Shown: one piece after another, positions 31,471 to 59,375 of the stretch
How positions within the stretch are numbered: the first letter of the stretch is position 1
Layout: the number at the start of each line of letters is the position of its first letter
From: an uncultured bacterium
GTDB taxonomy: Bacteria; Fermentibacterota; Fermentibacteria; Fermentibacterales; JCC-6
Reading direction: 5' to 3'
DNA: 64,000 bases
Assembly: GCA_964423505.1 (NCBI GenBank)
Contig: CAYREX010000009.1
Span: 1 to 64,000, forward strand
Notes under the pieces: model-generated
Databases searched by the model: none
What the model was told of the DNA's origin: nothing
Seen by the model: the letters and a program-made list of their open reading frames with translations, nothing else
Translations under genes and position numbers: made by a program

Positions 31471-31652
31471 GCTTCCCGGTCCATGACCACCCTTGCCGCC
31501 CCTGGCCGGGGGTCGCCGGGGTGACCCGCCCGCCCCAGACCCTTTAGGAACATCGCTTCCCCCCTCCGCCGAGCCGGTGGACCCCCAGGGACCTGTCTTT
31601 CCTGCACCTGCGGGCGATCCTCGTCAATCCCGGCGGTTGACCCGGGCGGGCA

Positions 31653-33212: not shown

Positions 33213-33236
33213 CATGAGCCCCCGGAAGGGAGGACG

Positions 33237-34241: not shown

Positions 34242-34272
34242 CCCCGGGACAATCCGTGCAGGGAGGACCGAC

Positions 34273-35328: not shown

Positions 35329-35404
35329 CCGGAGCCAGCCCGCGTTGACGAAAGACCTACCGTTCCGGTATTGAAACGGCGAACCCGAACCTCTGGGAGG
35401 CAAC

Positions 35405-35668
35405 ATGATAAGGCGAGCCGCGCTACCGGCTCTCGTCCTCCTCTCCGCGATGGTGCTGCCGCTGAGCGCAGCGGACGTCTACGTCTGGAACTTCGACGAC
35501 GAGGACGTCTTCTACTGCAGCGAGGCGGGGTCGACGGTAGACTGCGCCTACTGGATCGAGGAGACACTGGATGCGGCGGGACACTCGGTTACCACCGGGA
35601 CCACCCTCCCCTCCGACCTCGGTCCGTACGACGTGGTCTTCGTAACCCTCGGCTGGTACCGGTGTTGA
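35405..35668 (+). CDS. N-terminal segment (signal peptide plus ~60 aa) of a T9SS cargo protein, terminated by an in-frame TGA
   Basis: Signal peptide MIRRAALPALVLLSAMVLPLSAA; reading frame continues unbroken after TGA at 35666-35668 into the 35849..36421 ORF. Confidence 0.5.
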   Translation: MIRRAALPALVLLSAMVLPLSAADVYVWNFDDEDVFYCSEAGSTVDCAYWIEETLDAAGHSVTTGTTLPSDLGPYDVVFVTLGWYRC

Positions 35669-36421
35669 GGGGACAACTCGACGATTGCTCAGGCTGAGCA
35701 GACAAGGCTGATCTCTTTCCTGAACGCCGGGGGCGGGCTCTACATCGAGGGCGCAGACTTCGGCTACAACAACTCCGGCAGCGCCATCTACGAAGTCTTC
35801 GGCTGCAGCTACGACGGCGACGGCAGCTCCTCGGGCAACGTCCAGGACGTGGCCGGCGTCACCGGCACGATGCTGGACGGCATAGCCTGCGACTACATCC
35901 ACGACACCGGCCCCGACAGCTACGTCGACGAGATATCCGCCGACGAGGGCACGCTCCTGATGCGCTCCCAGGACGGCAAGGGCAGGGCCGTCTGTTGGGA
36001 GGGGGCCGGCGGCACCTACAGGGCCCTGCACTCCAGCGTCATCTTCGGCGCCCTCCGCGACGGAACCTCCACGAAGCGGGAGCTCATGGAGACGTACATG
36101 GGCTACCTCACCGGCAGCACCGGGGTCGGGGAGAGCTCCGGGGGCCTGACGCCCGCCGGGCTCGCCCTCGAGTACGCGAACCCCGCCAGGGGGACGGTCG
36201 AGCTGACCGCCACCGTACCAGGGGGGGAGGCGGACATCAGCGTCTACGACCTCACCGGAAGGCTGGTGGGGACCATCCACGGCGGACAGCTCCGGCCCGG
36301 TACCCACCGCTTCTCCTGGGACGGCCGTGCGGACACCGGGACCAGGCTGCCCGGAGGGACCTACGTGGTGCGTCTGGGAACGGAGCAGGGGAGCGTCACC
36401 GGTACGCTCCTGCTCATCTAG
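35669..36421 (+). pseudogene. Continuation of the same frame: C-terminal part of the T9SS cargo protein (interrupted gene, or UGA-recoded)
   Basis: Same frame as 35405 (both equal 2 mod 3); no in-frame ATG/GTG/TTG until 35849; carries the T9SS C-terminal domain ...DISVYDLTGRLVGT...FSWDG...GTYVVRL. Confidence 0.5.
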
Positions 36422-36438
36422 AGCTGTCGACCCTGGAG

Positions 36439-36463
36439 GCCGCGCCGCTGCACGCGGCGCGGC
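36439..36463. terminator. GC-rich hairpin between convergent genes (candidate bidirectional terminator)
   Basis: GCCGCGCCGC-tgcac-GCGGCGCGGC, a 10-bp stem, between the stops at 36421 (+) and 36494 (-). Confidence 0.45.
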
Positions 36464-36493
36464 CCGGTACCCCGTTGGCTGCTCCCGGGCGAG

Positions 36494-38296: not shown

Positions 38297-38509
38297 ACAC
38301 CTCGATAGATAACTGCAGAAGAACGCACCGGGCGTCAACGTGCCGGCCAACTGGAGGACGAAGCTCTGCGCGGATGACATCGTCGAGCGTGGATGACCGC
38401 TCCCCGCCGACCGACCGGCGGGAGCTGCGTCGCCGGGGAGAGAGAGATCCGGCATCCCCGCCGGTTGGCTATATTGGGGTGGTCCGGTCAACAGGATGGA
38501 GGGAAGACA

Positions 38510-39628
38510 ATGAGATCTGCCGTCACCACGATAGCCGTCATCGCCCTGCTGGTCGCCTGCGGCGGCGGGGAACCGGAACCCGCAGCCGATGATGCGATAA
38601 CGCTTCCCGTCGACACTCTTCGGGTCGGACTGGAGATCGGAGAGGAGATAGGGGATTCCACCACTACGTTCGGCGCCATAGCCGCCGCCACGATAGACGA
38701 CCGGGGCAGGCTGATAGTCGTGGACCAGGCCGCCGCCTGCCTGAAGGTCTACGACCTGGACGGCAGCTACATCCGGCAGGTCTCGCGTCGGGGGTCCGGG
38801 CCGGGGGAGCTCGTGATGCCGTGGGACCTCTTCACCATGCCGGACGGCAGGCTGGTGGTGGTCGCTCCGGGGAAGCAGGGCTTCGTGGTCTTCGACGATT
38901 CGCTCGAGTTCGTCGAGGAGGTCGCGCTCTGGGCCCAGAATCCCCCCTTCCAGCCCGTGGCGGTCTCCGACAGCAGCTTCGTGGGGTACAAGATAGGCCA
39001 GGACATGCGCGACGAGACAATAGTCATGCGCCGCGCCGTGGCCATCTTCCAATGGGGCGAGGAGGACTGGGACACGGTCCTCTGGAAGGACTCCATAGAG
39101 GCGAGCATGAGCGAGATAATGGAGGACCCTTCCGTCTTCATCATCGACCTGATCGACCCGCTGAGCATCGGCGGTGGACCCCGGCAGGGGATATTCTTCG
39201 CCCTCAAGGACGCCTACGACTACAGCGTCACCGGCTGGGACACCTCCGGCACCGAGATACTCTCCATCCGGATGGACCTCTCCCCGGTGGAGAAGACCGA
39301 GCAGGAGATGGCCGACGAGAGCCTCTACGTAAACAGCTACATCGAGAGGATAAGCGGGGGAGGCGGCTCTCCCTTCGAGTTCAACCCGGACCCTCACAGG
39401 GACATGGTCATAGGCCTGGACATCGGCCCGGACGGCAACCTCTGGGTACGGAGGGGTACCACGAACGCCCCCTTCTTCGACATCTACGACCTCGAGGGCG
39501 ACCTCCTGGGCCACGCCGTCTACCCGGACAGCGCCTGGAGCTGGCGGACCGAGATAACGCCCCACGGCATCGTCGCCTGGGAGGACGACCCGCTGGAGGG
39601 TTACCAGAAGCTCTACCTGCTGGAATAG
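38510..39628 (+). CDS. Lipoprotein, 6-bladed beta-propeller (TolB/NHL-like)
   Basis: Start MRSAVTTIAVIALLVACGG (lipobox) after RBS GGAGGG; repeats GRLIVVD / DGRLVVV / DGNLWV. Confidence 0.55.
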   Translation: MRSAVTTIAVIALLVACGGGEPEPAADDAITLPVDTLRVGLEIGEEIGDSTTTFGAIAAATIDDRGRLIVVDQAAACLKVYDLDGSYIRQVSRRGSGPGELVMPWDLFTMPDGRLVVVAPGKQGFVVFDDSLEFVEEVALWAQNPPFQPVAVSDSSFVGYKIGQDMRDETIVMRRAVAIFQWGEEDWDTVLWKDSIEASMSEIMEDPSVFIIDLIDPLSIGGGPRQGIFFALKDAYDYSVTGWDTSGTEILSIRMDLSPVEKTEQEMADESLYVNSYIERISGGGGSPFEFNPDPHRDMVIGLDIGPDGNLWVRRGTTNAPFFDIYDLEGDLLGHAVYPDSAWSWRTEITPHGIVAWEDDPLEGYQKLYLLE

Positions 39629-39813
39629 GCACGCCCGCGACAGCATGCCGCGGCGCTTCGGGACCGGCTCCGGCGGACTCTCCGTCGGGGGGGCTTCCGG
39701 ACTCCGGCCGCGTCCGGCGGGGGGAAGCCATCGTCCGGGCGGCTGACGGGAGCTTCTCCTCGGGATTATCTTCCCGGGGCCGCGAATCGGCCCGACGAAC
39801 CGGACGGAGGGGC

Positions 39814-41217
39814 ATGAGCAAGATCCTGCTGGTAAACCCCCAGTCGGCCATAGGGGTCTACGACAAGAGCAAGATACGGGTGGCCATCACGGCAGCGCCG
39901 TTCGTAACCCTGGCCAGCCTGGCCGGGGCCGCCCTGGAGGGCGGGCACTCCGCCCGGATAGCGGACCTGATGATAGAGGGCGACCCGGAGTGGGCCTACC
40001 GCAAGGCGCTCTCGGAGTACCGTCCGGACTTCGTGGGGGTGACGTTCACGACTCCGCTCTACCGGGAGGCGCGCGAGCTGGCCGCCACGGCGAAGGAGGT
40101 CCTCGGGCCCGGCGTCACCACTCTGTGCGGGGGCATCCACGCCACCGCCCTGCCCCGGGAGGTCCTGGAGGAGAGCGAGTTCGACATCGTCGTCATCGGC
40201 GAGGGTGAGAGGACCCTGGTCGAGCTGCTCGACGGCATGTCCCCCGATCTGGTGGACGGAATAGCCTACGGCACCGGAGAGGGCTTCGCCACGACCCCTC
40301 CCAGGGCGCCCATACGGAACCTTGACGAGCTGCCCTTTCCCGCCTGGCACCTGCACGACCTCCGCTACTACAGGGCGCCCCACATCGCCTCGCGGAGGAA
40401 TCCGGTGGGCTACATGGAGACCAACAGGGGCTGCAACCACTACTGCACCTACTGCAGCCAGAAGGTCTTCGGGCACCACGTCCGCTCCAAGTCTCCGGAG
40501 CGGGTGCTGGACGAGATGTACAGGATGCTGGACACCGGCTTCCGGGACATCCACATCAAGGACGACAACTTCACCGCCGACATGGACCGGGCCAAGCGCA
40601 TATGCAGGATGATGATAGAGAGAGGCTTCCCGGCCCCCTGGGCCCTGCCCACCGGCATCAACGTCCACGACGTCGACGAGGAGTTCTTCCGGCTGGCGAG
40701 GGAGGCCGGGTGCTACCAGGTCTCCTTCGGAATAGAGAGCGGAGTGGAGGAGATACTCCGGGGCGTCGCCAAGCGCCAGACGCCGGATGAGATGAGGCGG
40801 GCTGTCACGATGGCCCACGATGCCGGCCTGGAGACCGTCGGGTTCTTCATGATGGGCCTCCCCGGCGACACCGAGGAGACAATGAGGCGGACCATACGCT
40901 TCGCGTGCAGCCTCCCCCTGACCTACGCCAAGGCCTCGATGACCCTCCCCTTCCCCTCCTCCGCCCTCTTCCGGCAGGTGGACATGCGCGGCGGCATACT
41001 CTCAAAGGACTGGGACCTCTACAACTTCCACTGCACCACCGAGGTATGGGAGCACGAGAACCTGGACTGGGATACCATCAGGCACTACTACTCCAGGTTC
41101 CACAGGAGGTTCTACTTCAGGCCATCCTACATCTGGAGGCGGTTCTGGAGGGACATCCGCATGGGGCAGCTCCGGGACGACGTCAGGGCGGTGCTCTCGA
41201 ACGACTGGTCCGGTTAG
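39814..41217 (+). CDS. B12-binding (class B) radical SAM enzyme
   Basis: N-terminal cobalamin-binding-like Rossmann region; radical SAM cluster motif CNHYCTYC at about residue 205; 467 aa. Confidence 0.7.
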   Translation: MSKILLVNPQSAIGVYDKSKIRVAITAAPFVTLASLAGAALEGGHSARIADLMIEGDPEWAYRKALSEYRPDFVGVTFTTPLYREARELAATAKEVLGPGVTTLCGGIHATALPREVLEESEFDIVVIGEGERTLVELLDGMSPDLVDGIAYGTGEGFATTPPRAPIRNLDELPFPAWHLHDLRYYRAPHIASRRNPVGYMETNRGCNHYCTYCSQKVFGHHVRSKSPERVLDEMYRMLDTGFRDIHIKDDNFTADMDRAKRICRMMIERGFPAPWALPTGINVHDVDEEFFRLAREAGCYQVSFGIESGVEEILRGVAKRQTPDEMRRAVTMAHDAGLETVGFFMMGLPGDTEETMRRTIRFACSLPLTYAKASMTLPFPSSALFRQVDMRGGILSKDWDLYNFHCTTEVWEHENLDWDTIRHYYSRFHRRFYFRPSYIWRRFWRDIRMGQLRDDVRAVLSNDWSG

Positions 41218-41220
41218 ACG

Positions 41221-42480
41221 GTGTCGCTTCTGGAGCGGTACTGGGCGGTCCTCCTGCTCGCCGCCCTGCTCGTCTGCCTGCTGACCATCCTGCTCGAGAC
41301 ATCCTGGCCTGTGGCCAGGGTGGAGGTCGTCACCATCCCCTCCGGAGCGCTGCTCACCGCCGGTAACGGCTGGAGGTGGACCTCTCCCGCGCTTGTGCCG
41401 GTGCCCGACGAGGGCATCAGGCTCACCGCGACCCATCCTGACAGGATGCCGGTCGACACGCTGCTCACCACCGAGGAGGGCGGCGGTCGGCTCACCATCA
41501 TCCTGCCCTACACCTTCCCGGTCACGGTCACCAGCCGGCCACCCGGCGCTACCGTACTGCTGGACGGGGAGTACCGCGGGGTTACCCCGGTCTCTCTCGA
41601 GCTGGGCGCCCCCGGGACCTACCCGCTGAAGCTGACCAGCCAGGGGGTGGTGACCCTCCGGGACAGCGTTACCCTGGCCAGCAACGCGCCGGAGTCGCTC
41701 CACTACGTGCTGCCCGAGCTGCGGGAGGAGGGGATGCTCCTCGTCCGGAGGGAGTCGGTGGAGGGCTCGGAGCTGCCGCCCGGGCAGGAGGCCCTGCTCC
41801 CGGACAGCTTCCTCATCGGCAGGTACGAGGTCACCGCGCTGGAGTACCTCGGGTACCTGGCGGCGATGGAGCCCGACCCGGGCCAGGAGGAGGACCCCTA
41901 CAGGTGGAACAGGACCGAGACCTTCGAGTCCATCTTCCCCGGTGACTACCCGCTCCCGTACTACCAGGGGAACGGTGGGGGGTGGCAGGTGATGGAGGGG
42001 CTGCAGCACCACCCGGTGCCGGGGGTCTGCTACGATGCCGCCATGGACTACTGCCGGTGGCTCACCGAGACGAGGGAGGACGGGCTGACCTACAGGCTGC
42101 CCACCGAGGCGGAGTGGCGGGCGGCGGCGCAGGCCGGTGGCGACGGCCCCTGGCCCTGGGGGGCCACGGCGCCCTTCAGCGGGCTTCTGAACCTCTCCGA
42201 CTCGAACGAGATGATACTCCGGAGGCATCCTTCCATCGACGACGGTTTCTCCGAGACCGCCCCGGTGGGAAGCTATCCGCCGAACGGATGGGGTCTCTAC
42301 GACATGGCCGGGAACCTGTGGGAGTGGTGCGCCCCGGCCCCGGGCGACAGCCAGCCGGTCGCCATGGGCGGGAGCTGGCTCTCGTCGGCGGAGGACTGCA
42401 GGTGCGACTCGAGGATGGTGCCGGAGCCCGGCCTGGGCTTCCCGTTCGTCGGGTTCAGGCTGGCGGCGGACCCGGACTGA
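41221..42480 (+). CDS. Membrane-anchored tandem-PEGA / formylglycine-generating-enzyme (FGE-sulfatase, SUMF1-like) domain protein
   Basis: N-terminal TM helix; two PEGA-like beta domains; C-terminal FGE signature GWGLYDMAGNLWEWC...GGSW. Confidence 0.7.
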   Translation: MSLLERYWAVLLLAALLVCLLTILLETSWPVARVEVVTIPSGALLTAGNGWRWTSPALVPVPDEGIRLTATHPDRMPVDTLLTTEEGGGRLTIILPYTFPVTVTSRPPGATVLLDGEYRGVTPVSLELGAPGTYPLKLTSQGVVTLRDSVTLASNAPESLHYVLPELREEGMLLVRRESVEGSELPPGQEALLPDSFLIGRYEVTALEYLGYLAAMEPDPGQEEDPYRWNRTETFESIFPGDYPLPYYQGNGGGWQVMEGLQHHPVPGVCYDAAMDYCRWLTETREDGLTYRLPTEAEWRAAAQAGGDGPWPWGATAPFSGLLNLSDSNEMILRRHPSIDDGFSETAPVGSYPPNGWGLYDMAGNLWEWCAPAPGDSQPVAMGGSWLSSAEDCRCDSRMVPEPGLGFPFVGFRLAADPD

Positions 42481-42529
42481 GGCTACTTCCCGTCGACGTG
42501 CTCATTGGTTATTCTGGCCGGTAAGCGAT

Positions 42530-44305
42530 ATGCGCAAGGGGGACAGGAGGTGGACCGTGCCGAAGGGTGAGTATCCGGGAGGGCCGCTCTTCCCGGTCAG
42601 GAGCATACCCAGCATACCGATGGGGCTGCTGGCCGTGGCCGGAGAGAAGCCGGACAAGGTGGCCTTCCACGAGCCTGCGGCCGACGGGACATACCGCAGG
42701 GTCACCTACCGGGAGCTGGCGGCCGGTGTGGACCACCTGGCAAAGGCCCTGCTGGAGCTCTCGCCGGGGCCGGTGGTCGGCGTGACCGGCGACAACAGCG
42801 TCGACTGGTGCACGGTCTACCTGGCCACGCTGAGGGCCGGAGGCACCGTGGTGCCCATAGACAGGGAGCTGCCGGTCCAGGAGATGCTCGCGATACTCCA
42901 CTACTCGGGGGCGAACATCGTCTTCTTCGACGAGCGCTACGCCGAGGAGCTCCAGTCCCGGCTGGCCGGCCGTGAGAACGTCACCCTGGTCGCCATGAGG
43001 ACCGGGAGCTGCGAGGGCTGCGAGACCCTGGCCGCACTCGGGGAGAGGGGCGCGCGCAGCGGACGGGCCCTGCCGGAGAGCTACGACACTTCGGCCACGG
43101 CCTCCGTCTGCTACACGTCGGGCACGACGGGGCAGGCCAAGGGCGTCATGCTGAGCCAGGACAACATCCTGGCCAACATGAGGCAGATGCTGCAGTTCGT
43201 GGACATAAGGGAGGACGATGTCTTCCTCTCCATCCTCCCCGTGCACCACACCTTCGAGTGCACCTGCGGATTCCTCTGCCCGGTGGTCAACGGCTCCACC
43301 ATCTACATCAGCCGGGGGGTGAGGCACGTCGGGGAGGACATCAGGACCTCCGGGGCCACCATCATCCTGGCGGTGCCCCTGCTGTGGGAGGCCGTCTACA
43401 GGCGCATCATGAACGGCATACGCGCCGCCGGCGGAGGACCCGCCAAGTACAGGATAGGCCTGGCGGTATCGGCCATAGCGGAGAGGCTGGGCGCCAGGGG
43501 CGTCCGCAGGAAGCTCTTCTCCCAGGTGCACGAGAAGCTCGGGGGCAGGGTCCGCATATGCGTCTCCGGAGGGGCCGGGATAGCCGCCGAGGTGGTGGAC
43601 GGGTTCAGGAAGCTGGGGTTCGACTTCCTGCAGGGCTACGGCCTCACGGAGACCGCGCCGATCATCTCCGTGAACAGGACCACGGCCAACAGGGTCGGCT
43701 CTGTCGGCCCTCCCCTCCCGGACGTGGAGGTGAGGATAGAGGAGCCGGACGCCCTCGGGAACGGCGAGATAGTCGTCAGGGGGCCCAACGTCATGTCCGG
43801 CTACTTCCAGAACCGGGAGGAGACGGCAAAGGTGCTCTCGGGCGACGGCTGGTTCAGGACCGGTGACTACGGACACCTCGACGGCGACGGCTTCCTCTTC
43901 ATCACCGGCAGGAAGAAGAACGTCATAGTCGCCAAGAACGGAAAGAACGTCTATCCGGAGGAGATCGAGCTGAAGATAGGCCGGAGCCCGCTGGTGCTGG
44001 AGTGCATGGCGCTGGGGAAGCGGGCGGAGGCCAAGGGCGAGGAGATATGGCTCATCGTGGTGCCGGACATGGAGCGGCTGATAGAGATGGCGGAGGGCTC
44101 GGGCAGGAGCCTTACCACCGAGTTCCTGGCCGACCGCATACGGAGGATAGTCCGGGAGTACAACGCCTCGGAGCCGATCTACCGGAGGATAGCGAGGTTC
44201 ATCATAAGGGAGGACGAGTTCCCGAAGACCACCACGAGGAAGGTCCGCAGGCGGGAGGTCCTGAGGGAGGCCGGCCTGGAGGAGGAGGTCTCCTACAACG
44301 TCTAG
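42530..44305 (+). CDS. Long-chain fatty-acid--CoA ligase (AMP-binding family)
   Basis: YTSGTTGQAKGV, QGYGLTETAP, FRTGDYG, PKTTTRKVRRREV motifs. Alternative GTG start at 42557 with an AGGAGG RBS. Confidence 0.8.
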   Translation: MRKGDRRWTVPKGEYPGGPLFPVRSIPSIPMGLLAVAGEKPDKVAFHEPAADGTYRRVTYRELAAGVDHLAKALLELSPGPVVGVTGDNSVDWCTVYLATLRAGGTVVPIDRELPVQEMLAILHYSGANIVFFDERYAEELQSRLAGRENVTLVAMRTGSCEGCETLAALGERGARSGRALPESYDTSATASVCYTSGTTGQAKGVMLSQDNILANMRQMLQFVDIREDDVFLSILPVHHTFECTCGFLCPVVNGSTIYISRGVRHVGEDIRTSGATIILAVPLLWEAVYRRIMNGIRAAGGGPAKYRIGLAVSAIAERLGARGVRRKLFSQVHEKLGGRVRICVSGGAGIAAEVVDGFRKLGFDFLQGYGLTETAPIISVNRTTANRVGSVGPPLPDVEVRIEEPDALGNGEIVVRGPNVMSGYFQNREETAKVLSGDGWFRTGDYGHLDGDGFLFITGRKKNVIVAKNGKNVYPEEIELKIGRSPLVLECMALGKRAEAKGEEIWLIVVPDMERLIEMAEGSGRSLTTEFLADRIRRIVREYNASEPIYRRIARFIIREDEFPKTTTRKVRRREVLREAGLEEEVSYNV

Positions 44306-44389
44306 GCGCTCCCGCTTCCCCCGCGGGGCTTCCCCTGTAATATAATACCAGGATACTAGGAAATGAGGCACCATCCTGGAGGAGCCGGC

Positions 44390-45451
44390 ATGACAAGAGA
44401 AGTGAAGAGGTGCACCAGGTGCATCCTGCCCGAGACCTACCCGAACGTGGACTTCGACGAGAACGGAGTCTGCAGGGTCTGCAGGGAGTTCGACGAGCGC
44501 TACACCGACATCGACTGGGACGCCAGGCGCGCGAAGCTGGAGTCCGTGCTGGACCGGTACAGGGGGAAGGGGGTCAAGTACGACTGCCTCGTCCCCTTCA
44601 GCGGAGGCAAGGACAGCACCTACACGCTGTGGCTGCTCAAGAACCGCTACGACATGCGCTGCCTGGCCTTCAACTTCGACAACGGCTTCCTCGACCCGGG
44701 CGCCCTGGCCTTCGCGAAGGAGTCGGCGGCCAGGCTGGGGGTGGACCTCGTCACCTACTCCCCCGACTTCGACCTCCTGAAGAGGGTGTACAGGCGTGCT
44801 CTGGAGACCACGGGCGAGTTCTGCGCCGCCTGCGTCGTGCTCATGCCCACCGCCATCTTCAGGGCGGCGGACAACCACGGCATACGGCTGATAGTCGCCG
44901 GCTTCTCCGACATGCTGGAGGCGCCGCCGCCCGAGACATCGTACATGGACCGGGTCTGCTTCAGGAACATGATGAAGGACGAGATACCGCTCTCGGAGCT
45001 CAAGTGGGACTTCTTCTTCCCCTCCTGGAAGAGGATGTTCGGCGTCAAGCAGATCAACCTCCCCAACCACATGCCGTGGGACCTGCCCCGGATATACGAG
45101 ACCCTCAACCGGGAGCTCGACTTCGGCAAGACCATGAAGGACGTCAGGTACGACTGCCTCGGGACCCCCCACTCGAGCTACCTCTTCCGCCGGCGGACCG
45201 GGTTCGGCAAGTACGAGTACCTCTACGCCAACATGGTCAGGGCCGGCGTCATCTCCCGCGACGAGGCGCTGGAGATAGTCCGCGAGAGGGAGCCGGACGA
45301 GCCACCCGAGGGATTCGACGAGTTCCTCGCGATGCTGGGGGCCGACAGGTCGGTCCTGGAAGGCATCGAGGAGCGGTCCGTGTTCAACTTCCGGGGCAGG
45401 AACAGCCTCCTCCGCAGGATAGCGATATGGATCCGGGAGCGGATGCCCTGA
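44390..45451 (+). CDS. N-acetyl sugar amidotransferase (PP-loop ATP-pyrophosphatase; WbuX/PseA-like)
   Basis: N-terminal zinc ribbon CTRCILPETYPNV...CRVC; PP-loop SGGKDS; ~350 aa. Confidence 0.7.
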   Translation: MTREVKRCTRCILPETYPNVDFDENGVCRVCREFDERYTDIDWDARRAKLESVLDRYRGKGVKYDCLVPFSGGKDSTYTLWLLKNRYDMRCLAFNFDNGFLDPGALAFAKESAARLGVDLVTYSPDFDLLKRVYRRALETTGEFCAACVVLMPTAIFRAADNHGIRLIVAGFSDMLEAPPPETSYMDRVCFRNMMKDEIPLSELKWDFFFPSWKRMFGVKQINLPNHMPWDLPRIYETLNRELDFGKTMKDVRYDCLGTPHSSYLFRRRTGFGKYEYLYANMVRAGVISRDEALEIVREREPDEPPEGFDEFLAMLGADRSVLEGIEERSVFNFRGRNSLLRRIAIWIRERMP

Positions 45452-47034
45452 CCCCGTCCGGCGGACCCCCGGCAGGCCCCTCCGCCCGGCCGCTGCTGCT
45501 GCTGCCCCTTCTGCTCCTCCCGGCGGTCCTGCTGGTCGCCATGGGCGGCCCGTGGAGCCTCTCCGGTGACGAGGCGCTGACCGCCAGGCTGGCCGTATCG
45601 CCATGGACAACGGTCGTCTCCAGCATATCCGCCGACAACCACGTGCCCGGCTACTACGGCTACCTCTGGCTCTGGGTCAGGGCCCTGGGAGACTCTCCCG
45701 CCTCCCTGAGGGCCAGCTCGCTGCTGGTCGTGGCCGTCATGGTGGCCGCCGCCTGGAGGCTGCTTCCCCGGTGGACCGCCGTCATCGTCGCGCTCAGCCC
45801 CTTCACGGCGCACCTCGCGGTGGAGGTCCGGATGTACGGCATGCTGGCTCTCTGGGGGCTGCTGCTGCTGGCCGCGCTGCGGGCCTGGTCGACCCGCCCG
45901 GGGCTGCCCCGGGCGCTGCTCGCAGGCATCCTTGTATCGGCCGCCACCTGGACGCACCACTTCGGGTGGCTCGGCCTTCCTGCCGCACTGACGGTGATGG
46001 CCGGCAGGAGGGCATGGCGGGATATGGCTCTTGTACTCCTGCTGCCCCTGCTCCTCTACCTCCCCTGGGCCGCCACCGCGCTCTCGCAGCTCGGGCGGTT
46101 CGGCGGGGCGGCCCTGGAGGGGAGCAGCGTCTACATCCCGTCGCCGTCGCTCCCGGCGAGGCTGCTCGGTGTACCCTTCTCGCTGGCCGGGACCCTGCTC
46201 CGGTTCTCGTCGGGCACCTCGGTCTTCGACTTCGGGCTCTTCTCGGTCCGGTCTCTCAGCGCCTGGCTGCTCCCGGCGGCGGCCTCCGCGCTGCTCCTGA
46301 CCATATCCGCGGCGGCCGGGGCCTTCCGCCGTCGGGGGGCCGCCCTCTCCATGCTGGCCTGGGTGCTGCTGCCGCTGTCGCTGCTCAGGCCGAGCGCCAG
46401 GCACTTCGCGCTGGCCTTCCCGGCCTTCGCCCTGGTCGCGTCCGCCGGGCTGGCCGGTCCGGGGCGGGCAGCTTCGGCCGCCAGGAGGCTCCTCCCCCTC
46501 CTGCTGCTCTGCCTCTGGGTGCCGCTGGCCACCAGGTCCACGGTTCCACAGAGGACCACGTTCCACCGGGACTTCCGCGAGGCGGCCGGTAGGGCGGCGG
46601 AGACGGCAGCCGAGGAGGATGCCCCGGTGGTCGTGGACCTCGACCTATACTCCACGCTCGCCCTCCTCTACCACCTGGAGAGGCTGGAGGCGTCTCCGGC
46701 AGTCGCATGGCACCCTCACGGGGAGCTGCTCGGGAGCGACACCGTCTTCTACCGCAGGGTCCCGGATGCCACCGCCTACCTGACCGTCGACACCGACTCC
46801 ATGGTGGAGGACTGGAGCTCCCGGTACGGGCGAATCGTCCTGCTGGCCAACGACCCGACCCTCGCACGGGGGCCGGTGACCGGTGAGGAGAACCCGTTCA
46901 TCGGCATGGGCAGCGGCGTGATGTCCGACATGGACCTGCTGGAGGCGCTCGAGGCCCGGGCGGGGGTGGAGAGGGTCACGCTGAGCGGCAGCGAAGGTCC
47001 CTTCTCCCTCCTGGTGGTGGACTTCCGGCGGTGA
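45427..47034 (+). CDS. Polytopic membrane protein, GT-C/PMT-like glycosyltransferase or polymerase candidate
   Basis: 535 aa, Leu/Ala-rich with more than 10 TM segments; overlaps neighbours at both ends. Confidence 0.4.
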   Translation: MDPGADALTPSGGPPAGPSARPLLLLPLLLLPAVLLVAMGGPWSLSGDEALTARLAVSPWTTVVSSISADNHVPGYYGYLWLWVRALGDSPASLRASSLLVVAVMVAAAWRLLPRWTAVIVALSPFTAHLAVEVRMYGMLALWGLLLLAALRAWSTRPGLPRALLAGILVSAATWTHHFGWLGLPAALTVMAGRRAWRDMALVLLLPLLLYLPWAATALSQLGRFGGAALEGSSVYIPSPSLPARLLGVPFSLAGTLLRFSSGTSVFDFGLFSVRSLSAWLLPAAASALLLTISAAAGAFRRRGAALSMLAWVLLPLSLLRPSARHFALAFPAFALVASAGLAGPGRAASAARRLLPLLLLCLWVPLATRSTVPQRTTFHRDFREAAGRAAETAAEEDAPVVVDLDLYSTLALLYHLERLEASPAVAWHPHGELLGSDTVFYRRVPDATAYLTVDTDSMVEDWSSRYGRIVLLANDPTLARGPVTGEENPFIGMGSGVMSDMDLLEALEARAGVERVTLSGSEGPFSLLVVDFRR

Positions 47035-48482
47035 GGGGCGGCGAGGCGTTGGGCGGCAGGCACAGCAGGGGCAGCAACAGCCTGGTGATGGCTGGCGGTC
47101 AGCTCGCGGGCAAGGGCGCCCTGATGCTCTCCCTGATGGTGCTCTCCCGTTACCTTCGGGACGACCACTTCGGGATGCTCCTCTTCGCGGTGGCGCTGGG
47201 GCAGATACTCCTCTTCCTGGCGGACCTCGGCGTCTCGCTCGTCTCCAACAGGGAGTTCAGCCTGCACCCGGAGCGGCTGCAGAGCCTCTACTCCACCGCT
47301 CTCGGCCTCAGGCTCCTGACGACGGCGGCGGCCTGGACGCTGGTCATGGCGGCCGGCATCGCCGCCGGTTACGGCAGGACCCAGATGGTCATCCTCGCTC
47401 TCGTCGGCGCCGGCTCCGGGCTGGAGGCGGCGGCGGAGCTGCAGTACGCAGTCTTCAGGGCGGGGGAGAGGATGGTGTACGAGTCGCTGGCCCGGATAGC
47501 CGGCGGGGTCGGCATGCTGGTGCTGGTGCTCGCGGTCAGGGCGGCCGACCTCGGCCCGGAGGCTGCCGCAGGGGTGTACGCCGCCAGGGCCATGTTGGCG
47601 CTGGTCATCGGCTTCCTCTTCCTGGGCAGGTTCGGCGTGAGGCCGCGCCCCGGCTTCGGCGGCTCCCACCTGCTTCGGCTCCTGCGGGAGAGCTGGCCCC
47701 TGGGACTCATGGGGCTGCTCTTCATAGCGCTGCAGAGGCTCGACAACGTCTTCGTCAGGGAGCTAATCGGAGTGGAGGCGGTGGGCGCCTACAACGAGCC
47801 TTACAGGATACTGGAGAGCCTAACCCTGCTCATCACTCCCACGCTGCTGCCCGGCGCGCTCTTCCCCGGTCTGTGCAGGGCCTTCGAGAGGGGAAGCGGG
47901 GCCGCTTCGCGGAGGCTGGTCCGGATAGCCGGTCTGGTCACGGGGATAGCTGCGGCGGTGATGATACCCGTCTTCGCCGGCGGCATGGAGCTGCTCCGGG
48001 CGATATGGGGCGAGGGACTCCTCCGGGGCATCCCCCCGGCCGACTTCAGGGCCACTTTCCTGCTCCTGATGGCGGCGATACCGGCGGTCTTCTGGATGAA
48101 CTACCTCGTGGCGAGCGTGATAGCCGCGGGCAGGCAGCGCACGACCGTTCCCGTCACCTCCGCCGGGCTGGTGCTGAGCATCCTCGGCAACCTCATCCTG
48201 CTGCCCAGGATGGGCCTCCCCGGGGCGGCGGTCACGGTCATCGCCGTCAACCTCTTCATGTCGCTGGCCTACTACGTCGTGCTCAGGGGGAGGAACCCCC
48301 TGCCGCTGCTCAGTGGGAGCCTGCTGCCCGCGGCCTGCGCGCTCCCGCCGCTGGGTCTCATGGTCCTGACCACCGGATGGCCGCTGGTCCCCAGGATGCT
48401 GGCGCCCTTCCTGCTCTACCTGGTGCTGTGGGGCGCCACCGGCGGCCTCTCGATGCTGACCGGCGGGGAGGCCGGAGACTGA
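47031..48482 (+). CDS. wzx: Wzx-like oligosaccharide flippase (MOP superfamily polysaccharide biosynthesis protein)
   Basis: 483 aa, 12-14 TM helices, typical flippase layout; GTGA overlap. Confidence 0.6.
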   Translation: MRGGEALGGRHSRGSNSLVMAGGQLAGKGALMLSLMVLSRYLRDDHFGMLLFAVALGQILLFLADLGVSLVSNREFSLHPERLQSLYSTALGLRLLTTAAAWTLVMAAGIAAGYGRTQMVILALVGAGSGLEAAAELQYAVFRAGERMVYESLARIAGGVGMLVLVLAVRAADLGPEAAAGVYAARAMLALVIGFLFLGRFGVRPRPGFGGSHLLRLLRESWPLGLMGLLFIALQRLDNVFVRELIGVEAVGAYNEPYRILESLTLLITPTLLPGALFPGLCRAFERGSGAASRRLVRIAGLVTGIAAAVMIPVFAGGMELLRAIWGEGLLRGIPPADFRATFLLLMAAIPAVFWMNYLVASVIAAGRQRTTVPVTSAGLVLSILGNLILLPRMGLPGAAVTVIAVNLFMSLAYYVVLRGRNPLPLLSGSLLPAACALPPLGLMVLTTGWPLVPRMLAPFLLYLVLWGATGGLSMLTGGEAGD

Positions 48483-48550
48483 GCGGCCCGGGAACGCCGC
48501 CCGCCAGGCTGGCCGGACGTCTCCGCGAATCGGCCGTCGCCACCGTATCC

Positions 48551-50152
48551 GTGGGCGGCAATCCTGCCGCCTACCTCGCGGGAGCCCTCCTGCCGGTAAT
48601 TGCCGTCGTCCTGCTCGCGATGCTCGTCTTCGAGCCGGGTGTGGTCTACCGCGACGCCTACCAGCACCTGATGATGGGGCGGCATATGGCGGAGGGCGAT
48701 TTCGAGCCGCGCCTCGAGCCGTCACGGACCCCCCGGTACACGGCCATGGACATCGGGCTCCGCGACGGGAGGGAGGTCAGGTTCTGGAAGTACCCGCCCG
48801 GGGTCGCCTTGCTCCTGGTGGCGCCGGCGGTGCTTCTCGGGGGGCCGGAGGCGGCGCTCTACATCAACCCGGTCCTCTGCGTTGTCATACTTCTGCTGTT
48901 CAACCACCTCTGCCAGAGGCTGGTGGGCGGCTGGACAGCCGCCGCCGGGGTCATGCTGGTGATGATGAACCCGCTCTGGCCTCTCCTGGGCCCCTCCTAC
49001 CTCTCCCACAGGGCCGTCTCGCTGCTGCTCGTGGCCTCGCTGATACTGCTGGTCCGGACGAGGGAGACCGGCTCCTGGAGGAGCGGCCTGCTCTACGGGC
49101 TGCTGGTCGGGCTGGTTCCTTCGGTCCGTTATCCGGAGGCGGTCATCGTTCCCGCGCTCGCTCTCCCCATGATCGTCATGTCGCTCCGGGGCCGGCTTCC
49201 CAGGCGAGCCCTCTTCGGATTCCTCGCGGGGATGGCCCTGCCGCTGGCCCTGCTAGGCGTCTACAACATGGTGGCCTTCGGCTCCCCGCTCACCACCGGA
49301 TACTCCCTCTCGGAGGAGCAGTCCGCCTTCGGCCTCTCCTACCTCGGCACGAACAGCGGGATCTTCTTTACCGGCCTCCTTTCGGACATGGGCGCGCACG
49401 TAATCCTGCTGGCCGTCTGCGGCGTGACCCTGCTCCTGAGGAGGGGCGGCGAGAGGCTGCTGGCCGCCTCACTGGCACTGCCCTTCCTGATGAGCGTCAC
49501 CCTCTACGCCAGCTTCAAGTGGGAGTACGACGGCAGGTACTTCCTCCCGTTCGTCTACCCGGTGGTACTCTCGGTGCTCCTGGCCCTCGAATGGCTGCAG
49601 AGGAACGCGCGGAAGCTGCTTGCGCCAATGCTGGCCGGAGCCCTGGCGCTCAGCGCCGCGGCCGCCGGAGAGGAGGCGAGGGTCCTCCTGGTGGCCGAGG
49701 AGGCCGCCGGCAGCGCCAGGGCTGCGTGCGACATGGTCCGCGGCGCGGTCCCGGACGGGAGCGTCGTGGTCACGCACCCCAGCCTGGCCTGGACCCTGGA
49801 CTTCCTGGGCGACTACGAGATACTCGACGCCGGGCTCATGGTCGACTCCCCGGGCGCGCTGGACAGCCTCATGCCAATGCTGCGCGGCAGCCCCCTCTAC
49901 GTGCTGGTGACCGGCCACTACGTGGATGCGCTCACCTTCCTGCAGGGCGACATGCTGGACGTTCAGCCGCTGGACAGCCTGGTCAGGCTGAACAGGGGCT
50001 GGCTCAGGATGGAGGACCAGGACCTCTCCGGGCTGCTCTGGAGCAGCACCCAGAAGCGGATGGAGTACGTCCTCCTCAGGGTGACCCCCCTTTCACCGGA
50101 GCGGGTCGGCGGGGTCGCGGATGACGCGGGGGAGGGGGATGGCGTATACTAG
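48551..50152 (+). CDS. Polytopic membrane protein, GT-C-like glycosyltransferase candidate
   Basis: 533 aa counted from GTG 48551 (an ATG alternative lies at 48620); many TM helices and a soluble C-terminal domain. Confidence 0.4.
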   Translation: MGGNPAAYLAGALLPVIAVVLLAMLVFEPGVVYRDAYQHLMMGRHMAEGDFEPRLEPSRTPRYTAMDIGLRDGREVRFWKYPPGVALLLVAPAVLLGGPEAALYINPVLCVVILLLFNHLCQRLVGGWTAAAGVMLVMMNPLWPLLGPSYLSHRAVSLLLVASLILLVRTRETGSWRSGLLYGLLVGLVPSVRYPEAVIVPALALPMIVMSLRGRLPRRALFGFLAGMALPLALLGVYNMVAFGSPLTTGYSLSEEQSAFGLSYLGTNSGIFFTGLLSDMGAHVILLAVCGVTLLLRRGGERLLAASLALPFLMSVTLYASFKWEYDGRYFLPFVYPVVLSVLLALEWLQRNARKLLAPMLAGALALSAAAAGEEARVLLVAEEAAGSARAACDMVRGAVPDGSVVVTHPSLAWTLDFLGDYEILDAGLMVDSPGALDSLMPMLRGSPLYVLVTGHYVDALTFLQGDMLDVQPLDSLVRLNRGWLRMEDQDLSGLLWSSTQKRMEYVLLRVTPLSPERVGGVADDAGEGDGVY

Positions 50153-50169
50153 ATGCTGTGTAGCAGCAT
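50153..50169. promoter_or_regulatory. Palindrome ATGCTG-tgtag-CAGCAT between the glycan cluster and parE
   Basis: Read directly after the stop at 50152; possible operator or weak terminator. Confidence 0.3.
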
Positions 50170-50202
50170 TCCCGGCAACGGAACATATGGTATGGCGGAG
50201 AG

Positions 50203-52008
50203 ATGAAGGTTACTGAAGGTACGGGCGTATACGACGAGAGCAAGGTCAAGACCCTCTCCTCGATAGAGCACATAAGGCTCAGGACGGGGATGTACATCGG
50301 AAGGATAGGGGACGGCTCCAATCCGGACGACGGCATCTACGTGCTCTTCAAGGAGATAATCGACAACTCCGTGGACGAGTACATCATGGGCCACGGCAGG
50401 AGGATAACCGTCAGGATAGACGACGGCACCGTCTCCGTCCGCGACAGGGGGCGGGGGATCCCCCTGGGGAAGCTCGTCGAGTGCGTATCGGAGATAAACA
50501 CCGGCGCCAAGTACAACACCGACGTGTTCATATTCAGCGTCGGCCTTAACGGTATCGGGACCAAGGCGGTCAACGCTCTCTCCGAGCGCTTCCGGGTGGT
50601 CACCTACCGCGACGGCAGGTACCGGGAGGCGGAGTTCGAGAGGGGGGAGCTGGTCGGGGACGAGGAGGGTGAGACCTCCGAGCGGAACGGGACCCTCGTC
50701 GAGTTCACCCCCGACCCGGAGGTCTTCGGCGACTACGCCTACCGGGACGACTTCGTCGAGAGCAGGGTCAGGTACTACTCCTACCTGAACGCCGGCCTGA
50801 AGATAACCCTCAACGGCACCACCTACTGCTCGGAGGGCGGTCTGCTGGACCTCCTCTACGACGAGGCCGGGGAATCGTCGGTCTACCCGGTGCTCCACTA
50901 CCGGGACAAGACCCTCGAGTTCGCCCTCACCCACACAACCGACTACGGCGAGCGCTACCTCTCCTTCGCCAACGGCCAGCACACCTCGGGCGGCGGGACC
51001 CATCTCTCCGCCTTCAAGGAGGGGATACTTCGGGCCGTGAACTCCTTCACCGGGGAGAGCTTCTCCGGGGCGGACGCGAGGGAGGGCATAATAGCCGCCG
51101 TCTCCGTCCGGCTCACCGAGCCCATATTCGAGTCCCAGACCAAGACGAGGCTCGGCAACAGCGACATCAAGGGCTGGGTAGTGGGCACCGTCGCCCAGGA
51201 GCTGGAGCAGCAGCTCCACAGGAACCCGGAGACAGCCGAGAGCCTGGTGGCGAAGGTCAAGGCGAACCACAGGCTCCGGACCGAGATGCGCAACGTGAAG
51301 AAGAAGGCTCGCGAGCGCGCCAGGAAGGTGGCCCTGCGCGTCCCGAACCTGCGTGACTGCAAGATACATCTCGGCGACAGCGACCCCAGGGCGGACGAGA
51401 GCACCATCTTCCTCACCGAGGGGGCCAGCGCCGCCGGCAGCCTGATAGCCAGCAGGGACGTGCACACCCAGGCGGTCTTCGCGCTGCGGGGCAAGCCGCT
51501 GAACTGCTTCGGGCACCGGCGCGACACCGTCTACAAGAACGAGGAGATCTACAACATAATGCGGGCCCTCGACATAGAGGGAGAGATAGAGAACCTCCGC
51601 TACAACCGCATCGTGCTCGCCACGGACGCGGACGTCGACGGCATGCACATACGCAACCTCCTCCTGACTCTGTTCCTCCACTTCTTCGAGGCGCTGGTCC
51701 TCGACGGCCACCTCTACATCCTGGAGACCCCCCTCTTCAGGGTCAGGGACAGGAAGAGGACGGTCTACTGCTACACCGAGGCGGAGAGGCTTGAGGCGCT
51801 CGAAGAGATAGGCAGGAGCGCCGAGATAACCAGGTTCAAGGGGCTGGGCGAGATATCGCCGGGCGAGTTCGGGCAGTTCATAGGCGAGGACATCAGGCTC
51901 ATCCCCGTCCGCATCGACAGGCTGCGTGAGATACCGGGGCTGCTGGAGTTCTACATGGGCCGGAACACCCCCGAGCGCAGGAGCTTCATCATGGAGAACC
52001 TGGTGTGA
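50203..52008 (+). CDS. parE: Type IIA topoisomerase B subunit, short ParE-like form (topoisomerase IV subunit B)
   Basis: GHKL ATPase motifs (EIIDNSVDE, GLNGIGTKAVNALS), TOPRIM (LTEGASAAGS, DADVDGMHI); 601 aa. Confidence 0.8.
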   Translation: MKVTEGTGVYDESKVKTLSSIEHIRLRTGMYIGRIGDGSNPDDGIYVLFKEIIDNSVDEYIMGHGRRITVRIDDGTVSVRDRGRGIPLGKLVECVSEINTGAKYNTDVFIFSVGLNGIGTKAVNALSERFRVVTYRDGRYREAEFERGELVGDEEGETSERNGTLVEFTPDPEVFGDYAYRDDFVESRVRYYSYLNAGLKITLNGTTYCSEGGLLDLLYDEAGESSVYPVLHYRDKTLEFALTHTTDYGERYLSFANGQHTSGGGTHLSAFKEGILRAVNSFTGESFSGADAREGIIAAVSVRLTEPIFESQTKTRLGNSDIKGWVVGTVAQELEQQLHRNPETAESLVAKVKANHRLRTEMRNVKKKARERARKVALRVPNLRDCKIHLGDSDPRADESTIFLTEGASAAGSLIASRDVHTQAVFALRGKPLNCFGHRRDTVYKNEEIYNIMRALDIEGEIENLRYNRIVLATDADVDGMHIRNLLLTLFLHFFEALVLDGHLYILETPLFRVRDRKRTVYCYTEAERLEALEEIGRSAEITRFKGLGEISPGEFGQFIGEDIRLIPVRIDRLREIPGLLEFYMGRNTPERRSFIMENLV

Positions 52009-54218: not shown

Positions 54219-54285
54219 ATGCAGACATGTCGAGGCTCACCCGGAAGGGTGACGTCCTCCGACCCGCCGCATCCTCGGAAGGGGA

Positions 54286-57093: not shown

Positions 57094-57103
57094 GGGAGGG
57101 AGG

Positions 57104-59301: not shown

Positions 59302-59375
59302 CGTTTGCTTCCGGTAGTATGATAGCGCAGTCGACCAGCGCAGAGTACCCGGAAAAGGAAGCAGATTGGAGAGCG

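Follow-up and report, generated by a model that had tools for sequence, protein, structure and literature searches.

What would be made by a run of seven genes that brings together a B12-binding radical S-adenosylmethionine (SAM) enzyme, a protein with the fold of the formylglycine-generating enzyme (FGE), an acyl-adenylate-forming ligase, a sugar amidotransferase, a flippase, and two membrane glycosyltransferases? This question is raised by positions 39814 to 50152 of contig CAYREX010000009.1 (GenBank assembly GCA_964423505.1), from an uncultured bacterium of the phylum Fermentibacterota, of which the first 64,000 nucleotides were analyzed (hereafter the window). An initial annotation had suggested an uncharacterized envelope glycoconjugate pathway, and this general idea is also our best reading, as homologs of the radical SAM enzyme lie beside family 2 glycosyltransferases (GT2), flippases of the MOP superfamily, and PMT_2 glycosyltransferases in unrelated phyla. 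More specifically, we propose, with a probability of about one half, that the cluster is a Fermentibacterota envelope-glycoconjugate locus that works on a polyprenyl-phosphate sugar-carrier logic.

The seven genes, g1 to g7, are all on the + strand, and third-position GC frame analysis agrees with the annotated run of co-directional, tightly spaced genes. They encode a radical SAM enzyme with a B12-binding domain, predicted to be of class B (g1, 39814-41217, 467 aa); a protein with a predicted membrane anchor, a PEGA domain, and an FGE-sulfatase fold (g2, 41221-42480, 419 aa); an acyl-adenylate-forming ligase of the ANL superfamily, similar to acyl-CoA ligases (g3, 42530-44305, 591 aa); a probable N-acetyl-sugar amidotransferase (NASAT) of the WbuX/WbpG/PseA family (g4, 44390-45451, 353 aa); a divergent PMT_2-type GT-C glycosyltransferase of predicted ArnT-like architecture (g5, 45427-47034, 535 aa); a predicted Wzx-like flippase of the MOP superfamily (g6, 47031-48482, 483 aa); and a PMT_2-family GT-C glycosyltransferase, encoded between the flippase gene and parE (g7, 48551-50152, 533 aa). 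With a G+C content of about 68% in the window, raw lists of open reading frames (ORFs) were full of spurious frames, which the third-position GC frame plot resolved. The intergenic spacing from g1 to g7 is 3, 49, and 57 nt, followed by overlaps of 25 and 4 nt and then by 68 nt, so that the "several coupled overlaps" described earlier do exist but number two. Orthologs in related genomes exist for six of the seven genes, which are therefore real genes and not chance ORFs, and the annotated identity of each of the seven was reproduced at the level of domain or fold.

The reality of the genes, their domains and folds, the conserved four-gene core, and the repeated association of the g1 family with GT2, flippase, and GT-C genes are observed here, whereas the substrate, the succession of reactions, what g1 and g3 do chemically, and the acceptor are those that we infer for such a locus. 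A GT2 similar to AglJ, PpgS, or ArnC, which is encoded beside the cluster in many relatives and not within the window, would probably make a lipid-linked (or nucleotide-linked) sugar of the N-acetylhexosamine type at the cytoplasmic face of the inner membrane. On this sugar, g1 would perform a radical step, either a ring contraction or rearrangement or a C-methylation; g4, where present, would turn an acetamido into an acetamidino group at the expense of ATP; and g3 would activate a carboxylic acid as acyl-AMP or acyl-CoA, in order to acylate or activate the sugar. The lipid-linked product would be flipped to the periplasmic face by g6 and its sugar transferred by GT-C enzymes, here g5 and g7, to an envelope acceptor, which may be lipopolysaccharide (LPS), a protein, or a glycan. 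Finally, g2, translationally coupled to g1, would be an extracytoplasmic binding or processing module and may tether g1 at the membrane.

A four-gene core in Fermentibacterota

The cluster was compared with 80 loci found with a g1 profile and 13 found by exact-protein look-up (L001-L008 and L089-L093); the window proteins were mapped onto L001-L088, and the ORFs of the loci were clustered. Scattering of the genes in related genomes, which had been named as an argument against a common pathway, is partial: g1, g2, and g3 are adjacent in 21 of the 27 Fermentibacterota loci, and the other six are partly scattered. Of these loci, 17 reach far enough to show what comes next, and in each of them the flippase gene g6 follows g3 or g4. 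Around ten of the 17 evaluable loci have g4, on either strand, and g5 is found in three (L002, L003, and L017, all similar to F. daniensis), where it separates g3 from g4 and overlaps the stop of g3; g7 occurs in none of the related loci (0/17). The conserved core is thus g1-g2-g3-g6, with g4 optional, g5 restricted to one lineage, and g7 specific to this genome, and the idea of a seven-gene unit has to be given up.

Within the core, spacing in the relatives is 0-64 nt, with some overlaps, and the internal order is kept while the flanks change. The start of g2 is 0-3 nt past the g1 stop both in the window and in those related loci that were inspected, and the g3 orthologs always come after g2. 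The upstream neighbor varies by lineage, being an Rce1-like gene, a divergent GT2, a papain-lectin protein, or, in the window, a propeller lipoprotein. L002 and L004, which differ in their upstream boundary genes, both have opposite-strand genes between the flippase gene and parE. Because the upstream neighbors vary while order and spacing persist, and because opposite-strand genes part the block from parE in these two loci, we argue that g1-g6 behaves as a discrete unit.

Compared with the window proteins, the orthologs are about 70% identical for g1, 75% for g4, 68% for parE, 53% for g3, and 35-40% for g2, g5, and g6. The Fermentibacterota homologs of g1 that were found, in metagenome-assembled genomes of Candidatus Fermentibacteria, Fermentibacter daniensis, Aegiribacteria, and Sabulitectum, are 65-80% identical, which places the window in the phylum Fermentibacterota (Hyd24-12), and a public contig carries an identical gene call of 467 aa. 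This degree of conservation, similar to that of topoisomerase IV, points to a core envelope function in Fermentibacterota. A GT2 is encoded next to or near the block in 12 of the 27 loci, often divergently transcribed. Two of these GT2s were scanned and scored best on AglJ, PpgS, dolichyl-phosphate hexose transferase, and ArnC, all below cut-off; the window has no homolog of them. Several relatives also have a second radical SAM gene (27-29% identical) between the flippase gene and parE.

In the subclade of L011, L012, L015, L052, and L030, the g1 ortholog (69-70% identical; partial in L030, with 75% identity over the aligned part) is followed by a Peptidase_S41-like gene, with no g2, g3, or g6 beside it. 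A radical SAM paralog (26-28% identical) precedes g1 in four of these loci, and a 1078-aa GGDEF/TPR protein is encoded upstream in L012, L015, and L052.

The limits of the cluster are less easily read from the window itself. The + strand run extends from 38393 to 57316 and takes in parE, parC, a P-type ATPase gene, and an ORF with a LapA domain; co-directionality is therefore real but sets no boundary to the cluster. Scans for sigma-70 promoters and terminators gave counts at or below shuffle expectation and do not define a transcription unit. Rfam at gathering thresholds returned zero families over the whole 64 kb, tRNAs and riboswitches included, and hence no cobalamin riboswitch upstream of g1. 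A 33-codon ORF upstream of g1 was considered as a leader or precursor peptide and rejected, as the upstream flank differs among related loci.

The downstream flank is parE/parC in most loci, and immediately upstream F. daniensis has a glycolysis operon. This operon is retained in the window at 18.9-26.6 kb, separated from g1 by a 13-kb insertion. The gyrB/parE-like and parC-like genes of the window (50203-54218) overlap by 4 nt, and the match of the parC-like product to PRK09631 (topoisomerase IV subunit A) reaches 811 bits. Across Fermentibacterota, the two genes are conserved as downstream neighbors of the cluster, which shows that synteny in the phylum can persist beyond any common function.

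Relatives of the radical SAM enzyme in other phyla

Outside the phylum, the nearest homologs of g1 (36-50% identical) are those of Woesearchaeota, Nanoarchaeota, Omnitrophota, Elusimicrobia, and unclassified metagenome-assembled genomes. They recur in a cassette whose parts, counted over 28 loci, are a small GT2 of about 230 aa similar to AglJ, ArnC, and PpgS (20 loci), a class-I methyltransferase (14 loci), an FAD amine-oxidase-like protein assigned to PRK07208 and weakly UGM-like (14 loci), a PMT_2 GT-C (9 loci), and a MOP flippase (5 loci). A frequent order is GT2, methyltransferase, radical SAM, FAD oxidase, radical SAM, and MOP flippase, with a PMT_2 gene beside. In a neighbor-joining tree, the cassette clade and three paralogs from L005/L006, an organism similar to the FCB group, are nearest to the Fermentibacterota g1 clade, and genuine HpnJ, which has a YdjC/HpnK neighbor, stands apart in a clade of its own.

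In DPANN archaea and other uncultured lineages, the recurring cassette of L007, L008, L036, L037, L038 (3240-12378), L041, L056, and L066 includes two B12-radical SAM genes, and the Omnitrophota loci L047 and L048 have a similar gene set. In L005 (8541-13796) and L006, the three g1 homologs, which at 50-52% identity are the closest outside the phylum, flank a gene for a 260-aa FGE-fold protein with no signal peptide, presumably cytoplasmic. In L091, a related contig, the product of the FGE-fold gene is a lipoprotein; the gene is found at a distance of about 4 kb and adjoins another radical SAM gene and an IspD-like nucleotidyltransferase gene. A variant of the cassette in L089 (1643-17404; GCA_040773245.1) comprises two PMT_2, three B12-radical SAM, one FAD oxidase, and two GT2 genes, along with a gene for a protein of 494 aa with a Sulfatase domain and two radical SAM genes of the SPASM type, which resemble the anaerobic sulfatase-maturating enzyme. 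L089 hints at a possible link with sulfatase/formylglycine-type chemistry, parallel to the FGE-fold gene of Fermentibacterota. We found no description of the cluster or of the DPANN/Omnitrophota cassette in the literature that could be searched.

The flippase g6 is not closely related to those of the cassettes, its sole match outside the phylum being in a more distant locus (L069, 26% identity). A co-inherited module of radical SAM enzyme and flippase was thus rejected, and the link between the g1 family and flippase/GT-C genes must have arisen more than once. Such independent association is better evidence of shared function than co-inheritance.

How much weight can then be put on a common pathway? 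The strongest competing explanation is that the genes are neighbors by inherited synteny: g1 and g2 would share one task, g3 would have a housekeeping role as a ligase of the acyl-CoA or acyl-ACP type that passes scavenged fatty acids on to lipid synthesis, and g4-g7 would be generic, interchangeable surface-glycan genes. Several observations weigh against a sugar-carrier pathway, many of them in favor of this mosaic. Synteny in the phylum also keeps unrelated neighbors, with parE/parC in the same block and glycolysis genes directly upstream in F. daniensis, and adjacency alone is therefore weak evidence. The genes g4, g5, and g7 come and go. The six partly scattered loci have g1 without g2, g3, and g6 adjoining; one of them has a g2-like gene on the opposite strand about 4 kb away, and five share the alternative arrangement described above, where g1 in four cases adjoins the 26-28% identical paralog. 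A second ANL ligase is encoded beside kdsA (20029-21708), and outside Fermentibacterota a ligase is linked to g1 homologs in one distant locus only and an FGE-like gene only in the lineage of L005, L006, and L091. Moreover, no GT2, initiating transferase, acyltransferase, or sugar-nucleotide gene was found in the cluster or among the scanned ORFs of the window, and within 10 kb the only GT-C of L002 is g5 and L004 has none, so that GT-C transfer is not locally encoded everywhere. Nevertheless, the order and tight spacing of g1-g2-g3-g6 outlive the change of both flanks, the end of g3 and the beginning of g5 overlap in F. daniensis, and flippase and GT-C genes joined g1 homologs independently in distant phyla. 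We regard the mosaic as possible but rather doubtful, and retain the sugar-carrier pathway as the preferred reading.

Candidate chemistry of the cluster proteins

The N-terminal B12-binding domain of g1 (PF02310, 58.7 bits; cut-off 32.1), followed by a radical SAM core (PF04055, 88.3 bits), places the enzyme in class B by domain content, with use of cobalamin predicted. The cysteines of its CxxxCxxC motif, C207, C211, and C214, are invariant across 16 homologs. The top NCBIfam models are BchE (TIGR02026, 180.4 bits; cut-off 481) and HpnJ (TIGR03471, 179.3 bits; cut-off 577.6), all methylase models score lower, and no NCBIfam cut-off is passed. Weaker matches include the ladderane-type "lipid biosynthesis B12/radical SAM" model TIGR04072 (106 bits) and two models of enzymes for ribosomally synthesized and post-translationally modified peptides (RiPPs), ApyD (119.7 bits) and TIGR03975 (72 bits). 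The expectation of a methyltransferase is unsupported; the enzymes of the two best models are non-methylases (PMC9204698).

The nearest solved structures are AprD4, which is the best PDB sequence match, the MCR glutamine methyltransferase 9CCB, and TsrM. AprD4 is a diol-dehydratase and no methylase, and the B12-binding domain does not, therefore, fix the chemistry of g1; AprD4 carries this domain but is not known to use cobalamin.

By these scores, g1 is related to HpnJ and BchE and a member of neither. Genuine HpnJ from L078 and L082 reaches 753 and 765 bits on TIGR03471, and g1 is 30-33% identical to true HpnJ and separated from it in the tree. As for the gene context, neither YdjC nor squalene-hopene cyclase was found among the ORFs scanned in the window or in the loci of Fermentibacterota, and no photosynthesis genes, as would accompany BchE, were found. 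YdjC is a neighbor in just five distant loci (27-34% identity), at least two of which hold genuine HpnJ. A grouping with bchE-like enzymes had been put forward as a ground for rejecting the envelope reading, and nominally g1 does show it, with 180 bits for BchE and 179 for HpnJ; yet in our view the likeness to HpnJ speaks for that reading, since the substrate of HpnJ is an amino sugar linked to a lipid. For HpnJ and the calditol synthase Cds, both radical SAM enzymes, the proposed reaction is the contraction of a hexose or hexosamine carried on a lipid, which yields a cyclitol ether (PMC13459092).

The ligase g3 has an AMP-binding domain (264.7 bits) and C-terminal domains. Its best NCBIfam model is the long-chain fatty acid-CoA ligase PRK06187 (269.7 bits; cut-off 476), with all 105 listed families under cut-off, and its top PDB matches are malonyl-CoA and feruloyl-CoA synthetases. 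The assignment is thus secure to the ANL superfamily only, "fatty-acyl" being the best label, and the fatty-acyl or long-chain specificity claimed earlier is not established. Fermentibacterota are described as diderm, fermentative anaerobes with LPS and without beta-oxidation (PMC5030696), and g3 is therefore no catabolic ligase. The adjacent PDB codes of the acyl-CoA ligases 8WEU and 8WEV, matched by g3, and of the NASAT 8WEX, matched by g4, were considered as a hint at a common published pathway and rejected as a coincidence of accession; in the literature behind them we found just a stand-alone NASAT paper and no joint ligase-NASAT pathway.

Should these proteins modify a membrane lipid in a manner similar to hopanoid, calditol, or ladderane synthesis, g1 would remodel a head group or chain, with g3 as the source of activated fatty acids and g6 as the flippase of the modified lipid. 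This possibility draws on the HpnJ and TIGR04072 matches of g1 (179 and 106 bits), on the top label of g3, and on the precedents for lipid-modifying radical SAM enzymes (PMC13459092), but every such score is far under the family cut-off, and true HpnJ, with its YdjC/HpnK neighbor and its 753-765 bits, forms a separate clade. Squalene-hopene cyclase, HpnI/K, ether-lipid, and fatty-acid synthesis genes were not seen nearby, and the closest g1 homologs are surrounded by glycan genes. We consider membrane-lipid modification unlikely.

The sugar-carrier pathway, which we prefer, would find a sugar-modifying partner in g4. This protein passes the cut-off of TIGR03573 (WbuX/NASAT) marginally, with 204.5 bits against 203.2, i.e., 1.3 bits over, and its sole PDB match is the NASAT of L. 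pneumophila, 8WEX. It carries the PP-loop SGGKDS and the tetracysteine CTRC...NGVCRVC, corresponding to the family motifs SGGxDS and CxxCxn[GN]xCxxC, the latter binding zinc (PMC10607449). The known NASATs WbpG, WbuX, PseA, and AglX share with g4 the pass on TIGR03573 and both motifs. Unlike WbuX/AglX-type systems, no HisH/HisF-like partners that supply ammonia (WbuY/Z, AglY/Z) were seen near g4, which further differs from the NASATs of O-antigen and N-glycan synthesis in its marginal score and in being dispensable in many relatives.

The translation start of g4 is most probably ATG 44390, because a Shine-Dalgarno sequence, GGAGGAG, lies 5 nt upstream, the orthologs are 353 aa long, and the alignments begin there; the alternative ATG 44363 would give 362 aa. 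The spacer between g3 and g4 contains the AT-rich nonamer TAATATAAT (44338-44346, + strand), which includes TATAAT and had been noted as a possible promoter. Read directly from the sequence, this candidate internal -10 element is indeed present, once in the window. Nevertheless, a consensus scan found no -35 element for it, 15 of 100 shuffles give at least one match to the nonamer at up to one mismatch, and the spacer before g4 is not conserved; it follows g3 in L004, with 26 nt, and g5 in L002, with 233 nt.

The three polytopic proteins are predicted to act in flipping and transfer. For g6, the domains Polysacc_synt (PF01943, 68.6 bits) and Polysacc_synt_3 (PF13440, 51.2 bits) and about ten hydrophobic segments agree with a MOP/Wzx flippase in domain and topology, and transport is predicted. 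The proteins encoded from 45427 (g5) and 48551 (g7) had been described as GT-C-like, and structure prediction bears this out for g5 and, with a weak model, agrees with it for g7, with matches to GT-C folds and not to Wzy/O-antigen polymerases. Although g5 has no Pfam or NCBIfam match, its AlphaFold 2 model (predicted local distance difference test, pLDDT, 84; predicted template modeling score, pTM, 0.85) shows a polytopic N-terminal module of the GT-C fold and a C-terminal soluble domain. The top 35 Foldseek matches in the PDB are all GT-C, with ArnT at template modeling (TM) scores of 0.53-0.55 and also Pmt4, STT3/PglB, AftA, and AftD. The acidic motif G47-D48-E49, which comes just past the first helix, shows no variation among 13 orthologs and may be catalytic. 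A profile search with g5 over 1.84 billion representatives gave 11 matches at E<=1e-30 and then more than 24,000 weaker ones, of which seven were sampled and all were PMT_2.

The last protein, g7, passes PMT_2 in Pfam (30.5 bits; cut-off 26.1) and reaches 47.7 bits on the LA_3751/2 family, under its cut-off of 200. The top Foldseek matches of its model are GT-C only (STT3, ArnT, PglB), but the model, built from 4 sequences, gives weak support only, owing to a pLDDT of 53.6. Only 4 homologs, at most 35% identical, were found in a database of 5.8 billion proteins, two inspected contexts consist of unrelated genes, and the third-position G+C content (GC3) of g7 is native-like; g7 thus appears to be a near-orphan, a genome-specific insertion between the flippase gene and parE. 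A third GT-C-type membrane protein is encoded 6.6 kb upstream of the cluster (31641-33212; GT87 35.1 bits, PMT_2 28.0 bits). Paralogy of this protein, g5, and g7 was considered and rejected, as no relation is detectable among them. GT-C enzymes of the ArnT/PMT type use polyprenyl-phosphate-linked sugars at the outer face of the membrane, and the donor of the cluster GT-C enzymes, whose fold match is that of predicted models, would accordingly be of this type.

A Wzx-like MOP flippase together with a NASAT is typical of O-antigen loci, and L004 has a Wzy_C/O-antigen-ligase-like gene about 3 kb upstream of g1, with members of the same ORF family in L013, L028, L029, and L031. This would suit a classical Wzx/Wzy-dependent locus for O-antigen or capsule repeat units, here of an acetamidino-sugar polymer. 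But no cluster-linked initiating phosphoglycosyl transferase, Wzy, chain-length regulator, GT-A/GT-B, or nucleotide-sugar gene is present among the scanned ORFs of the window, the polytopic g5 and g7 resemble ArnT/PMT-like GT-C enzymes and not Wzy/WaaL, and many relatives do without the NASAT, all of which makes such a locus quite improbable.

The remaining core protein, g2, has PEGA (47.1 bits) and FGE-sulfatase (PF03781, 128.5 bits) domains, and its PDB matches are PvdO, pFGE/SUMF2, FGE, and PorK. An N-terminal signal anchor is found in g2 and its orthologs, from which an extracytoplasmic location is predicted. In the motif GGSW-L-S-S-x-E-D-C, a Ser occupies the position of the first catalytic Cys in the window protein and in all 20 aligned Fermentibacterota orthologs, and the second Cys, Cys393, is kept in 21 of 23 aligned sequences. 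Alignment with HMMER to the FGEs of T. curvata and human likewise shows, for the Cx4C pair (C336 and C341 in human), a Ser in place of the first cysteine and Cys393 as the second. Because the first catalytic cysteine is replaced by Ser, g2 is an FGE-fold protein and not a formylglycine-generating enzyme. The membrane-anchored, extracytoplasmic FGE-like domain of the initial annotation is therefore borne out in fold and predicted location but not as an FGE enzyme.

The proteins pFGE/SUMF2, PvdO, and PorK/GldK, which are the best PDB or NCBIfam matches of g2, are likewise exported or membrane-associated and without the full catalytic Cys pair. In contrast to them, g2 combines a signal anchor with a PEGA domain, keeps one of the two cysteines, and is translationally coupled to a radical SAM gene, and the ring partners of the type IX secretion system (T9SS) are not adjacent. 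That g1 and g2 might instead modify a protein or peptide, whether RiPP-like, sulfatase/formylglycine-like, or T9SS cargo, is the least probable explanation of all, for although g1 weakly matches the RiPP radical SAM models (ApyD 119.7 bits, TIGR03975 72 bits), FGE-fold proteins recognize peptide Cys motifs and Cys393 is equivalent to the substrate-binding Cys341, the distant cassette L089 has a sulfatase and SPASM radical SAM enzymes, and the window encodes T9SS cargo upstream of the cluster, the upstream flank varies between genomes and showed no conserved precursor ORF, the scanned window ORFs include no sulfatase, g2 is short of one of the two Cys for copper/O2 chemistry in an organism that is an anaerobe, and the two proteins are predicted to be in different compartments, g2 outside the cytoplasm and g1 inside.

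Other features of the window lie at some distance from the cluster. The second ANL-family ligase gene (AMP-binding, product about 25% identical to g3) is directly upstream of a gene for a KdsA-like Kdo-8-P synthase, a gene of the LPS core; this block (20029-22465) is followed by PFK, GAPDH, PGK, and TIM and is syntenic with Ca. Fermentibacter daniensis. The insertion of about 13 kb relative to F. daniensis (26622-39628), between the glycolysis block and g1, contains genes for propeller proteins, the third GT-C, DUF389, a BNR protein, a DUF5128 lipoprotein, and T9SS cargo with Por_Secre_tail (35669-36421, and 36494-38353 on the minus strand). The minus-strand FG-GAP gene of the insertion has a GC3 of about 0.78, compared with about 0.9 in its neighbors, which suggests a more recent acquisition. 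About 9 kb downstream of the cluster, an APS kinase gene (PAPS synthesis, 59220-59999) adjoins an MFS transporter gene; no sulfotransferase or sulfatase was seen among the scanned ORFs of the window.

Sugar-carrier systems compared

A broader proposal, which we put forward tentatively, is that g1 belongs to a large uncharacterized clade related to HpnJ that remodels polyprenyl-phosphate-linked sugars before flipping and GT-C transfer, whether through C-methylation or through ring contraction that yields a carbocyclic or cyclitol unit. The result would be an unrecognized class of envelope glycoconjugates, of which the Fermentibacterota version would be acylated, amidinated, and phylum-wide. Members of the clade occur in Fermentibacterota, DPANN archaea, Omnitrophota, Elusimicrobia, and further lineages. 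If this is true, radical SAM chemistry on lipid-carried sugars would be a widespread route to cell-surface diversity, uncultured bacteria and DPANN archaea included. To our knowledge, such chemistry has so far been known or proposed only for the head groups of hopanoids, calditol, and moenomycin. Fermentibacterota are abundant in anaerobic digesters, and the four-gene core, the partner GT2 of the relatives, and the recurring archaeal and bacterial cassette could let a large unannotated part of the class-B radical SAM enzymes gain a function.

Among known systems, the closest in chemistry is the hopanoid pathway HpnI-HpnK-HpnJ, along with Cds and with MoeK5 of moenomycin. In these, a radical SAM enzyme (of class B for HpnJ and MoeK5) acts on a lipid-attached sugar, Cds being likened here by its described chemistry only, and in the hopanoid pathway a GT2 installs the sugar on which HpnJ acts. 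HpnJ is one of the two best curated matches to g1 and the best match to the DPANN cassette homolog in L041 (229.6 bits). Nevertheless, g1 differs from HpnJ in its score (179 against a cut-off of 577.6 bits), its 30-33% identity, its clade, and the absence of YdjC/HpnK and squalene-hopene cyclase neighbors. Also unlike in HpnI/K/J, the lipid is here presumably polyprenyl phosphate, and export would be by a flippase with GT-C enzymes.

The logic of the proposed pathway is that of ArnC/ArnD/ArnEF/ArnT, GtrA/B/C, the mycobacterial PpgS-Rv3779, and the archaeal AglJ/AglP/AglR/AglS, which share loading by a GT2, cytoplasmic tailoring, flipping, and transfer outside by a GT-C enzyme. In its predicted structure, g5 is closest to ArnT, the GT2s of the relatives score best on AglJ, PpgS, and ArnC, and the methyltransferase and MOP flippase of the cassette parallel AglP and AglR. 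The cluster differs from these relays in its tailoring set, which is a B12-radical SAM enzyme, an ANL ligase, and a NASAT, and in the lack of a GT2 in the window. Its flippase is of the MOP superfamily, unlike ArnEF and GtrA, although AglR is likewise a MOP protein. No cluster protein passes a curated cut-off for the named proteins of the relays, the cut-offs passed being those of NASAT (g4), PMT_2 (g7), and generic domains only, with every other one missed. By analogy, we propose that the cluster works like the Arn, Gtr, PpgS-Rv3779, and AglJ/P/R/S relays and the HpnI/K/J pathway, as a member of none of them.

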